A model generated the notes under the pieces. It ran no database searches. It worked only from the letters and a program-made list of their open reading frames with translations, and had not been told where the DNA came from. Below, one piece after another: positions 37,536 to 38,762 of a stretch of 64,000 nucleotides of DNA. The translations under genes were made by a program, and so were the position numbers. Source of the DNA: Acidimicrobiia bacterium UBA2766 (GTDB lineage Bacteria > Actinomycetota > Acidimicrobiia > UBA2766); the NCBI GenBank assembly GCA_002352645.1, contig DEIU01000102.1, forward strand, positions 22,761 to 86,760. The letters are read 5' to 3'. Position 1 is the first letter of the stretch. The number at the start of each line of letters is the position of its first letter.

Positions 37536-38762
37536 ATGACCACAAGTCCTAAAACTTCATTTGATGCGAAAAAAATATTTTCTTCTATTCCTGAAGCCGT
37601 TGCCGATCTGGCGGTAGGGAAGCTGGTCGTCGTGGTTGATGACGCCGACCGAGAGAACGAAGGTGACCTTGTCGCCATTGCCGAAAAGTGTACGCCTGAG
37701 ACTATTAATTTCATGGCGACACACAGTAGAGGGTTGATTTGTACTCCGATATCTGGCGAGCGTCTTGATGCGTTGGAGATCGACCAAATGGTCTCGGTAA
37801 ATACAGATACGCATGGAACTGCTTTCTCTGTGACTGTCGATGTCGACACGAATTCCACAGGAATCTCGGCAGCAGATCGCTCGGATACAATCCAGGCCCT
37901 GATAAACCCGTCCAGTAAACCGGAGGATTTTCGCCGACCCGGACATACCTTTCCCCTGCGTTATACAGAAGGAGGGGTGCTCCGTAGAGCCGGCCATACA
38001 GAGGCAGCAGTCGATCTTGCATTGCTTGCCAATTGCAGTCCTGCCGGTGTGATCTGCGAAATTATGGGTGACGATGGGACAATGGCCCGTTTGCCAGAAC
38101 TCGTAGAGTTCTGTGAGAAACATGGGCTGCGCATTATTTCTATCGCTGATCTCATTCATTATCGACGGCAGTCTGAAAAATTAGTACGCCGAGTGGTCGA
38201 AACCCGTATCCCGACCGAATATGGGGAATTCCGTTGTGTGGGGTATGAGTCTTCGATTGATGGAACGGAGCATGTGGCCTTCGTGAAAGGCGATGTGTCT
38301 GGCGAAGACGACGTGCTTGTGCGTGTGCATGCCGAGTATTTCATTGGCGACATCTTGGGCTACCGTGAGAATGACAGTCGTTCTCTGCTTCGTGCGGCCA
38401 TGCGTTGTATCGCGGAAAGCGGAAAAGGGGTCCTGCTTTACTTCCGTCGGTATGACGGAAAAGACGTCAGTGTTGTTGACGAACTTTCTTCTTTCAAGGG
38501 GCAGCGAAGTAAAAACTATATGCGGATGGATGACCGGGATTATGGCATTGGTGCCCAGATCCTGGTGGACTTGGGCGTGACGTCCATGTGTCTTTTGTCG
38601 AATCATCCTGCCACGAGGCGGGTTGGTCTTGCCGGTTACGGTCTTTCAGTGACGGAAACCCTTTCTCTCGCGGGAGAAAAGAAGCCACCGAAACGGCAAG
38701 CATTTGCTGATCTACTTGAGGGCCTCTCCGAAGCCGACCTTCTTCGTGTTGACCGGGAATAG
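37536..38762 (+). CDS. ribBA: 3,4-dihydroxy-2-butanone-4-phosphate synthase fused to a degenerate GTP cyclohydrolase II-like domain (RibBX-like)
   Basis: The RibB half is intact (DRENEGDL, HTEAAVDL). In the RibA half the zinc-ligand cysteines are replaced: RVHAEYFIGDILGYRENDSRS where the canonical sequence is [10 protein letters not shown]...RCDCG. ATG at 37536. Confidence 0.85.
   Translation: MTTSPKTSFDAKKIFSSIPEAVADLAVGKLVVVVDDADRENEGDLVAIAEKCTPETINFMATHSRGLICTPISGERLDALEIDQMVSVNTDTHGTAFSVTVDVDTNSTGISAADRSDTIQALINPSSKPEDFRRPGHTFPLRYTEGGVLRRAGHTEAAVDLALLANCSPAGVICEIMGDDGTMARLPELVEFCEKHGLRIISIADLIHYRRQSEKLVRRVVETRIPTEYGEFRCVGYESSIDGTEHVAFVKGDVSGEDDVLVRVHAEYFIGDILGYRENDSRSLLRAAMRCIAESGKGVLLYFRRYDGKDVSVVDELSSFKGQRSKNYMRMDDRDYGIGAQILVDLGVTSMCLLSNHPATRRVGLAGYGLSVTETLSLAGEKKPPKRQAFADLLEGLSEADLLRVDRE

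Follow-up and report, generated by a model that had tools for sequence, protein, structure and literature searches.

RibBX proteins, defined in papers that cite Brutinel 2013 and Islam 2015 as a DHBP synthase (DHBPS) fused to a non-catalytic “X” domain resembling GTP cyclohydrolase II (GCHII), are known in Proteobacteria from Shewanella oneidensis, Acinetobacter baumannii (6MNZ), Aeromonas salmonicida, Bradyrhizobium ORS285 and Rhodopseudomonas palustris (PMC10012899; bioRxiv 10.1101/2025.05.05.652280). The A. salmonicida protein has been examined by complementation or enzyme assays (PMC10012899), in the characterised proteins function is affected when the X domain is changed, and RibBX is often mis-annotated as bifunctional RibBA (PMC10012899; bioRxiv 10.1101/2025.05.05.652280). 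The proteobacterial genes lie within ribD-ribE-ribBX-ribH operons, with a monofunctional RibA as the GCHII partner. A comparable condition has been described for Arabidopsis AtRIBA2, which has kept DHBPS activity and lost that of GCHII, lacks the zinc-binding residues, carries a C-terminal deletion and exists beside a fully bifunctional paralogue (PMC3509567); this protein is eukaryotic and plastid-targeted, reflects an independent event, and is likened to the present one by description. The gene considered here lies in a 64-kb stretch of DNA, the window, and its product has the arrangement already known as RibBX, of which it is an independently evolved variant and no new kind of system.

The gene and its two domains

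The coding sequence occupies positions 37536 to 38762 of the forward strand and translates without interruption into 408 aa; an in-frame alternative ATG at 37503 would extend the product to 419 aa, and public annotations are split between the two starts. Pfam recognises DHBP_synthase at aa 20-209 (PF00926, 4.6e-84; 37593 to 38162, forward) and then GTP_cyclohydro2 at aa 219-376 (PF00925, 1.2e-44; 38190 to 38663, forward). A monofunctional RibB would end with its one DHBPS domain, at about 200-230 aa, whereas here a further 190 aa or so make up a folded C-terminal part that contains the GCHII-like domain.

In the N-terminal half the motifs DRENEGDL, RPGH, RRAGHTE and CEI are intact, the TIGR00506 (NCBIfam ribB) score of 242 bits exceeds the 177-bit cut-off, and two of 80 near-invariant columns deviate (A48I and G166N), neither of them within RENEGD, PGH, GHTE or CEI. 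Columns were counted as near-invariant when at least 95% conserved among 117 canonical RibBAs, which gave 80 in the N-half and 81 in the C-half; the canonical proteins themselves deviate on average in 0.7 and 0.4 columns, respectively. These values bear out the intact DHBPS half proposed in the first-pass annotation, and this half, as far as activity can be predicted from residues, looks like a working enzyme.

The C-terminal half deviates in 38 of 81 near-invariant columns and reaches 96 bits against TIGR00505, under the 206-bit cut-off. Its zinc motif has degenerated to RVHAEYFIGDILGYRENDSRS (aa 263-283; 38322 to 38384, forward), which aligns without a gap to the 21-residue canonical zinc stretch of M. 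tuberculosis RibA2 (4I14), E. coli RibA and the 117 canonical RibBAs, with Cys54, Cys65 and Cys67 replaced by Tyr268, Asn279 and Ser281. The first-pass annotation had reported the absence of all zinc-ligand cysteines, and with a continuous frame and a gapless alignment over the motif this observation stands, the cysteines being neither offset nor lost to a frameshift. The motif CX2GX7CXC, absent from this protein, is present in each of 80 GTDB relatives and in 235 of the 240 matches from the database. Mutational bias was considered as a cause of the Cys loss and rejected, as the G+T-rich coding strand favours TGT/TGC and the loss is also seen in relatives with 62-73% GC.

The decay extends beyond the zinc site. 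Thr56, Ser62, Arg64, Gly68 (now Arg282), Gln70, Gly97, Asn151 and Arg168 are also changed, Arg94 has become Lys and Lys101 Glu, and in the catalytic loop (aa 305-331; 38448 to 38528, forward) the canonical EGRGIG...K..AY.LQ..G.DTVEAN is reduced to RYDGKDVSVVDELSSFKGQRSKN, with Tyr105 replaced by Phe320 and nine residues deleted in the “G.DTVEAN” segment. The C-terminal tail “ENxxYLxxKxxKxGHLL” is short by about seven residues. The earlier description of the domain as otherwise full length therefore holds approximately, save for this loop deletion and the missing tail residues. Similarly, its claim that the catalytic Arg, Lys and Tyr positions diverge is correct for Arg94, Lys101 and Tyr105 but not for Arg128, whose equivalent Arg334 is retained in “DDRDYG” (38535 to 38537, forward; alignment column 367, an R in every sequence, whether canonical or Cys-less). 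Of the features expected of a bifunctional RibBA this Arg is thus present, whereas the zinc motif is missing and every NCBIfam RibBA equivalog score falls below its cut-off (best model NF006803, 488 vs. 569 bits; NF006806, 443 vs. 764; NF010626, 409 vs. 513). GCHII activity is abolished once any single zinc Cys is gone (PMC10366380), and the GCHII half is predicted to be catalytically dead.

The retained Arg bears on the question of whether the C-half may have turned to a different chemistry or ligand, such as zinc-independent GTP binding, pyrophosphate release, or GTP sensing that would couple both branches of the pathway. Arg128 contacts the alpha-phosphate and takes part in the guanylyl intermediate (PMC10366380); Arg49, His51, Glu53, Asp58, Asp66, Tyr88, Arg90, Asp126 and Asn150 are also kept, and Lys154 is replaced by Arg. 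Since Arg128 and several nucleotide-site residues persist, some GTP-related function is possible, and according to Kaiser 2002, as cited in PMC10366380, pyrophosphate release by GCHII needs no zinc. However, the changes at Arg64, Gln70, Arg94, Gly97, Lys101 and Tyr105 and the deletion of the DTVEAN loop speak against this, loop length varies among the members of its Cys-less clade in a manner unlike that of a conserved binding site, and we regard a new chemistry or ligand as very improbable.

In the predicted structure the core of the GCHII-derived fold is retained (pLDDT mostly 80-95), the catalytic loop being the least confident part of the model (pLDDT 50-66). The model matches both Mtb RibA2 (4I14), which is the best structural match and also the best PDB match of the protein by sequence (5.9e-112), and A. 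baumannii RibBX 6MNZ (E 4.8e-37, TM 0.66/0.79). Together with the intact DHBPS half and the loss of the zinc triad and Tyr105, this agrees with the RibBX-like reading given at first pass. As in proteobacterial RibBX, an intact DHBPS half is joined in a two-domain layout to a GCHII-like half without its zinc-binding and ring-opening residues, and the catalytic loop is shortened as in 6MNZ, BLASTP of the C-half being gapless over the loop region; the zinc-motif stretch itself reads RVHAEYFIGDILGYRENDSR here vs. RVHGFSPVRDLLKLNKADGEP in 6MNZ.

That the gene is an ordinary ribBA disfigured by sequencing, assembly or a frameshift is refuted. In addition to the continuous frame and the gapless alignment over the motif, the identical protein is carried by eight contigs, the locus has been recovered in several JGI, ENA and Logan samples, a strain with 99.4% DNA identity has the identical Cys-less motif, and relatives at 59-65% identity show the same motif type.

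Descent of the Cys-less proteins

The closest proteins by sequence are canonical RibBAs (4I14 and the Acidimicrobiia operon proteins P0002, P0003, P0005 and P0006), with 58-61% identity over the whole length and 70-73% over the DHBPS half, and they differ from the window protein in possessing the zinc triad, Tyr105 and the DTVEAN loop. The window protein (P0001), P0004, P0007 with its relative P0241, and P0121 have the Cys-less motif and the replacement of Gly68 by Arg in common and form a small clade, known so far only from uncultured Acidimicrobiia-type genomes, whose monophyly in the full-length tree is recovered in 95 of 100 bootstraps. In a neighbour-joining tree of the N-half, 88 of 100 bootstraps put this clade inside the Acidimicrobiia-type RibBAs, and none of 100 puts it with 6MNZ, the one sequence representing proteobacterial RibBX in these trees. 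The C-half tree, in contrast, joins the clade to 6MNZ in 99 of 100. A common origin with 6MNZ was nevertheless rejected, as the N-half tree disagrees and raw C-half similarity favours the canonical Acidimicrobiia RibBAs (46-50% identity, 172-187 bits) over A. baumannii RibBX (34%, 69 bits); we read the C-half grouping as long-branch attraction between two degenerate domains. Because the DHBPS half of the clade is placed among canonical Acidimicrobiia RibBAs and not with 6MNZ, loss of the zinc site is convergent. Trees and identities, so far as descent can be read from sequence, show the clade to have arisen within Acidimicrobiia-type canonical RibBAs, independently of the proteobacterial RibBX lineage.

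The members of the clade differ in the state of their DHBPS half. The window protein and P0004 keep all DHBPS catalytic motifs, with one or two deviations in the 80 conserved columns, whereas P0007 and P0241, which are 81% identical to one another, share the lesions E42V, D44A and T155A, and P0121 has lost catalytic residues through H137N, H154M and C69R. With DHBPS catalytic residues gone from two sister lineages, the function that preserves the clade need not be DHBP synthesis.

Loss of the zinc site is not confined to this clade, as 21 of the 150 best 50%-identity representatives among its relatives are without the Cys triad. Other Cys-less types, comprising P0291/P0339, a “VRVQRENLLGDLFRGAEFGGGR” type (L117-L124) and P0242, a DHBPS-X-GCHII tri-domain protein, are likewise fused to DHBPS, but their C-halves are only 37-48% identical to that of the window protein and in the N-half tree they occupy at least four separate positions elsewhere; the L117-L124 type differs further in having ribH directly after it. 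The window protein represents a further, independent origin of the RibBX architecture, and one outside Proteobacteria; together with the 21 Cys-less representatives, this origin suggests that inactivation of GCHII with retention of the fold is a recurrent outcome. It may be argued from such recurrence that the dead domain serves some general purpose other than catalysis. The finding extends a known theme and does not overturn current understanding. It has a practical side, in that such proteins are routinely labelled “bifunctional RibBA”, and metabolic reconstructions of uncultured Acidimicrobiia would credit them with a GCHII that they cannot have if the predicted inactivation is correct.

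Genomic setting

The gene lies outside any rib operon. As the first-pass annotation had it, the gene has no ribD, ribE or ribH with it and is divergent from a GT4 glycosyltransferase gene (36207 to 37397, reverse), which is taken as context only; the 64-kb window holds none of these three genes, nor a ribA, a hisG or any second GCHII or DHBPS. All of the closest canonical relatives, in contrast, lie in ribD-ribE-ribBA-ribH-hisG operons. The intergenic region between the two divergent genes (37398 to 37535) holds no riboswitch, and in a scan for promoters, operators and terminators over 36900-39300 it yielded no sigma-70-like site and no inverted repeat; terminator-like matches within the scanned interval are weak and lie mostly within the gene. 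The FMN riboswitch reported as missing was likewise not found here: no Rfam family matches the window, there being no FMN riboswitch at the gathering score in the window and none within 36900-39200 at E<=10. This absence is uninformative, because the canonical rib operons of the relatives L087, L088, L094 and L098 have no FMN riboswitch either.

A related MAG (GCA_020850945.1) encodes both P0005, which is canonical and situated in an operon, and the Cys-less P0007. There the Cys-less copy exists beside a complete ribD-ribE-ribBA-ribH operon and is therefore an extra stand-alone paralogue, an arrangement resembling that of AtRIBA2 and in which the GCHII partner is a canonical RibBA in place of the monofunctional RibA of proteobacterial RibBX. 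By extension the window gene may also be an extra copy, a status for which this single MAG is the basis, with the reservation that a bin may be chimeric. Within the 64-kb window neither a canonical ribBA nor a ribA was found for the organism itself. P0002, P0006 and P0011 were considered as its canonical copy and rejected, as their samples are different and their DNA has 67-70% GC, and the amino-acid composition of the listed matches pointed to no candidate. The matching GTDB representative loci do not include the species, the best of them being 61% identical.

In relatives the RibBX-like gene lies between unk671/unk401 and an SNF2 helicase gene, and in L084, L085 and L116, where no GT4 gene stands at the corresponding position, unk671/unk401 directly precede it; in L084 the stop codon of unk645 overlaps the ribBX start. 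Obligatory coupling to these upstream orphans was rejected on three counts, namely that the synteny block also holds unrelated housekeeping genes, that the GT4 gene interrupts the pair in the window, and that the more distant relatives L111 and L112 have unk651-unk437 and SNF2 but lack a ribBX in between. Since the gene is missing at this syntenic site in L111 and L112, it is dispensable in some lineages.

Constraint on both halves and possible roles

Members of the clade share 60-62% identity in the C-half, a conservation equal to that of the N-half, while identity between these genomes is 33-44% for the neighbouring genes SNF2, AAA_16, unk671 and unk401. The divergence of the C-half lies near that of catalytically active GCHII domains at similar N-half distance, and the domain is truncated in no lineage of the clade. 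Between the window strain and the L001 strain there are 8 synonymous and 3 conservative nonsynonymous changes, giving a within-species pN/pS of 0.12 (0.08 in the C-half), values which rest on these 11 substitutions. At the level of sequence comparison, these data show purifying selection acting on both halves, and they fit the suggestion, made at first pass, that the domain was retained for a non-catalytic role.

It is this constraint that makes it rather unlikely that the gene is a redundant duplicate in slow decay, its C-half a functionless remnant fused to a useful or tolerated DHBPS half. Such decay would accommodate the catalytic-loop indels, which differ in each clade member, the deterioration of the N-half in P0007/P0241 and P0121, the absence of the gene from the syntenic site in L111 and L112, and the frequency with which the zinc site is lost. 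However, a remnant would hardly keep a core of 60-62% identity where the other genes of the genomes stand at about 40%, diverge at nearly the rate of active GCHII domains, retain a pN/pS of 0.08 and escape truncation in every lineage, and alteration of the X domain does affect function in those RibBX proteins that have been characterised.

The protein is thus probably of the RibBX type, with a working DHBPS half and a dead GCHII half evolved independently within the Acidimicrobiia-type RibBAs. In this model it would be a source of additional DHBP that does not depend on the rib operon, and the GCHII activity of the organism would come from a canonical ribBA at another site in the genome. The dead domain would assist the DHBPS half structurally or in its regulation, a part that the X domain is reported to play in RibBX of Shewanella and Rhodopseudomonas.

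An alternate scenario would make the protein a regulatory pseudoenzyme that acts without catalysis, for example through mixed oligomers with canonical RibBA or through ligand sensing, its DHBPS activity being simply ancestral. The clade as a whole might then be a pseudoenzyme in the making, possibly sensing GTP through the Arg128/Arg49/Asp126 pocket, and would tune flow through both riboflavin branches. This would explain why P0007/P0241 and P0121, in which the catalytic residues of both halves are lost, remain full-length and conserved: loss of DHBPS catalytic residues has occurred independently in two of the four lineages, with identical lesions in P0007 and P0241, and the C-half is nonetheless as conserved as the N-half. 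DHBPS and GCHII are both dimers, and the DHBPS active site lies at the subunit interface (PMC10366380). However, selection for catalysis is the best account of why the window protein and P0004 have kept the complete set of DHBPS motifs, oligomer formation is purely hypothetical, and the N-half losses could equally represent early pseudogenisation in the lineages concerned; a regulatory pseudoenzyme, whether as the role of this protein or as the fate of the clade, is accordingly a minority possibility to which we give little weight. The graded series within the clade, in which the C-half is predicted to be dead in all members and the N-half also in two lineages, could reveal the role of the X domain, and the clade has invariant residues of its own in Arg282, “FRRY[DE]” and “MD[DE]RDYG”, a conservation that would also suit a non-catalytic function.

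Residue content of the two halves

The RibBX-like gene at 37536-38762 (+) is translated without interruption into 408 residues, while an alternative in-frame ATG at 37503 would yield a 419-residue protein, and public annotations make use of both starts. Pfam assigns a DHBP synthase (DHBPS) domain to residues 20-209 (E 4.6e-84) and a GTP cyclohydrolase II (GCHII) domain to residues 219-376 (E 1.2e-44). The protein remains under the curated cut-off of every NCBIfam “bifunctional RibBA” equivalog (best 488 bits vs. 569); of the domain models, it passes that for ribB (TIGR00506, 242 bits vs. 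a cut-off of 177) and fails that for ribA (TIGR00505, 96 bits vs. 206). The gene is no artefact: 8 contigs, of which 7 span 50-200 kb, encode the identical 408-residue protein, several JGI, ENA, and Logan samples yield the locus, and a second strain of the same species, sharing 99.4% DNA identity over 21 kb, carries the same zinc-site motif.

Both halves were compared to M. tuberculosis RibA2 (PDB 4I14), E. coli RibA (whose numbering is used for GCHII residues), and 117 canonical RibBAs, with the audit restricted to columns whose conservation among the canonical proteins is 95% or more. The canonical 21-residue zinc stretch has RVHAEYFIGDILGYRENDSRS as its gap-free counterpart, and thus the zinc ligands Cys54, Cys65, and Cys67 are replaced by Tyr, Asn, and Ser. 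The first-pass annotation was therefore correct that the GCHII half lacks its zinc-ligand cysteines, and the continuous frame and the gap-free alignment to E. coli RibA and others rule out offset cysteines or a frameshift. In this half, 38 of 81 conserved columns deviate (mean of 0.4 in canonical sequences), with Thr56, Ser62, Arg64, Gly68, Gln70, Gly97, Asn151, and Arg168 lost or changed, Arg94 replaced by Lys, 9 residues deleted from the “G.DTVEAN” loop, and a C-terminal tail short by about 7 residues. Divergence had also been claimed for the downstream catalytic positions, which holds for Lys101 (Glu) and Tyr105 (Phe) but not for Arg128, the alpha-phosphate contact of GCHII (PMC10366380), which is kept as R334. 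Arg49, His51, Glu53, Asp58, Asp66, Tyr88, Arg90, Asp126, and Asn150 are likewise kept; according to the same source, losing any one zinc cysteine abolishes GCHII activity, and pyrophosphate release by GCHII needs no zinc (PMC10366380). The DHBPS half, by comparison, deviates at only 2 of 80 conserved columns (A48I and G166N; canonical mean of 0.7) and contains all four motifs DRENEGDL, RPGH, RRAGHTE, and CEI, bearing out the description of this half as intact.

Proteobacterial RibBX is described as DHBP synthase joined to a domain resembling GCHII; this domain is without zinc-binding and ring-opening residues, has no cyclohydrolase activity, and affects the DHBPS half, and the protein is frequently mis-annotated as RibBA (PMC10012899; bioRxiv 10.1101/2025.05.05.652280; PDB 6MNZ). 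Arabidopsis AtRIBA2 provides a plant parallel (PMC3509567). By every sequence criterion tested the window protein appears like RibBX and AtRIBA2, and its interpretation as RibBX-like was essentially right.

Relatives and descent

Relatives were drawn from 5.8 billion protein clusters, which include thousands of RibBAs. Among the 240 matches listed, only four clusters have the Cys-less motif in common: P0001, the same-species cluster of the window protein (99% identity), P0004 (65%), P0007 (59%, from an “Acidimicrobiia bacterium” MAG), and the partial sequence P0121 (55% overall, 60% in the C-half). GTDB species representatives yielded 80 loci, each of which has the canonical cysteines. The closest canonical relatives among the matches listed (P0002, P0003, P0005, P0006, and P0011; 57-61% identity) each reside in a ribD-ribE-ribBA-ribH-hisG operon. 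Because canonical P0005 (contig JADZDR010000032) and Cys-less P0007 (contig JADZDR010000023) share the MAG GCA_020850945.1, the Cys-less gene is, at least there, additional to a complete pathway, bearing in mind that bins can be mixed. No canonical copy belonging to the window's own organism was found in the 64-kb window, the GTDB representative loci, or the related operon contigs.

Descent was addressed by distance-based neighbour-joining trees that included a single proteobacterial RibBX sequence, that of A. baumannii (6MNZ). In the tree of the DHBPS half, which the decay has left unaffected, 88 of 100 bootstraps put the Cys-less proteins within the Acidimicrobiia-type group and none of 100 with 6MNZ; the full-length tree recovers the Cys-less clade as monophyletic in 95 of 100. 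A tree of the C-half alone places the clade with 6MNZ in 99 of 100, which could be taken as common origin. However, the C-half of the window protein is closer to canonical Acidimicrobiia RibBAs (46-50% identity, 172-187 bits) than to 6MNZ (only 34%, 69 bits), and the grouping is therefore read as attraction between two degenerate domains. Judged by distance trees with one RibBX sequence, the Cys-less clade is independently evolved and of separate descent from proteobacterial RibBX. The window protein is thus an independently evolved variant of the RibBX architecture, differing from proteobacterial RibBX also in that its gene lies outside a rib operon and that the partner in the related MAG is a canonical RibBA, not a monofunctional RibA.

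Loss of the zinc site in the GCHII-like domain is a common event: when 1.84 billion representatives were searched exhaustively with a profile, the Cys triad was missing from 21 of the 150 with the highest scores, and these 21 occupy at least five separate places in a tree of the DHBPS half. A separate Cys-less RibBX-like family (loci L117-L124; motif VRVQRENLLGDLFRGAEFGGGR; G+C ~0.71; 47-48% identity to the window protein) has intact DHBPS motifs and ribH directly downstream, as in L120 (5371-6465, with ribH at 6545-6922). The 545-residue P0242 consists of DHBPS, a Cys-less GCHII-like domain (RVHSESLINDAFGAFAPDGG), and a canonical GCHII domain, the dead domain being retained despite the live one fused behind it.

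Constraint and possible roles

Within the Cys-less clade, identity is 60-62% in the C-half and 63-71% in the N-half; between the same genomes it is 33-44% for the SNF2 helicase, the AAA_16 protein, and the orphan proteins unk671 and unk401, and 63-67% for prolyl-tRNA synthetase. Decay of the C-half is centred on the zinc motif and the catalytic loop, with indels that differ by lineage; core strands and helices, including “DYGIGAQILVDLGV”, are retained, and new clade-specific invariants are present (Gly68 to Arg, “FRRY[DE]”, and “MD[DE]RDYG”). Comparison of the gene in the two window-species strains gives 8 synonymous and 3 conservative nonsynonymous changes, small counts from which pN/pS is 0.12 for the whole gene and 0.08 for its C-half; the full 21-kb region has 73 and 36. 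An AlphaFold model (pLDDT 82, pTM 0.73) predicts both domains, low confidence being confined to the N- and C-terminal tails and the decayed loop, and its best structural matches are M. tuberculosis RibA2 and RibBX 6MNZ.

Of the clade members, the window protein and P0004 have an intact DHBPS half. Key catalytic residues of this half are lost in two sister lineages (loci L085, 10001-11236, and L101, 74-1048), which are candidate double pseudoenzymes: E42V, D44A, and T155A are found in P0007 and in P0241, a relative of it at 81% identity, and H137N, H154M, and C69R in P0121. Their ORFs are open and conserved although both halves look dead, which leaves room for a non-catalytic function in the clade. 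That the clade serves as a regulatory pseudoenzyme, via hetero-oligomers with canonical RibBA or via GTP sensing, is improbable. The window protein itself is most simply read as a predicted active DHBP synthase.

Genomic setting and further features

That the gene stands alone agrees with six-frame profile searching, which found no further GCHII or DHBPS domain across the 64 kb, and with tblastn, in which Pfam-confirmed proteins of a related canonical operon gave no match to ribD, ribE, ribH, or hisG in the window. As described, a GT4 glycosyltransferase gene (36207-37397, -) is transcribed divergently from the RibBX-like gene. No Rfam family reaches threshold anywhere in the window, and a permissive scan around the gene returned two chance matches to snoRNA models only. 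The absence of an FMN riboswitch, also noted in the first pass, is confirmed yet uninformative, since four canonical rib operons of relatives likewise have none; it is likewise reported missing in mycobacteria (PMC11302143).

In relatives, a long syntenic block of mixed, unrelated functions runs from prolyl-tRNA synthetase to AAA_16, Rieske, unk671, unk401, and the RibBX-like gene, followed by a small ORF, SNF2/DUF3670, and LysM/M23. The slot between unk401 and SNF2/DUF3670 varies by lineage, holding GT4, the RibBX-like gene, a TPR protein, and glutamate dehydrogenase in the window (36207-41390) and the RibBX-like gene only in L084 and L085; L111 (11308-15093) lacks that gene and has a sulfotransferase with two glycosyltransferases (GT4 and GT1) in the slot. 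Because the block is mixed and the slot variable, no functional link between the RibBX-like protein and the orphans is inferred. These conserved orphans, unk671 (32691-34706, +; 671 aa) and unk401 (34887-36092, +; 401 aa), have no Pfam match. The unk671 family comprises only 13 clusters among 5.8 billion, apparently all in this lineage, and always lies downstream of the AAA_16 and Rieske proteins. By eye, unk401 has an HxxxD-like motif, “AHGVTDVAG”; it is called as 401 aa in L106-L108 and L110 (3197-4016) and as 329 aa, from a start ~216 bp later, in L105 and L109 (3413-4016), which may represent a strain difference at the 5' end within the window species.

On the + strand, GC skew is positive (+0.05 to +0.20) and AT skew negative in every 2-kb bin, whatever the gene orientation, and G+C is ~0.53-0.54, compared to 0.62-0.73 with a skew near 0.02 in syntenic relatives; strand asymmetry is therefore unusually strong, and G+C lowered, in the window lineage. 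Tandem M23 peptidase paralogues (45947-47023 and 47226-48341, both -) have a 331-bp stretch in common at 89% DNA identity, which suggests gene conversion or a recent duplication. At 1909 aa, the ORF at 8199-13928 (-) is very long and has an N-terminus (RVAIVNRGEAAMRFIHA) that by eye is biotin carboxylase-like.
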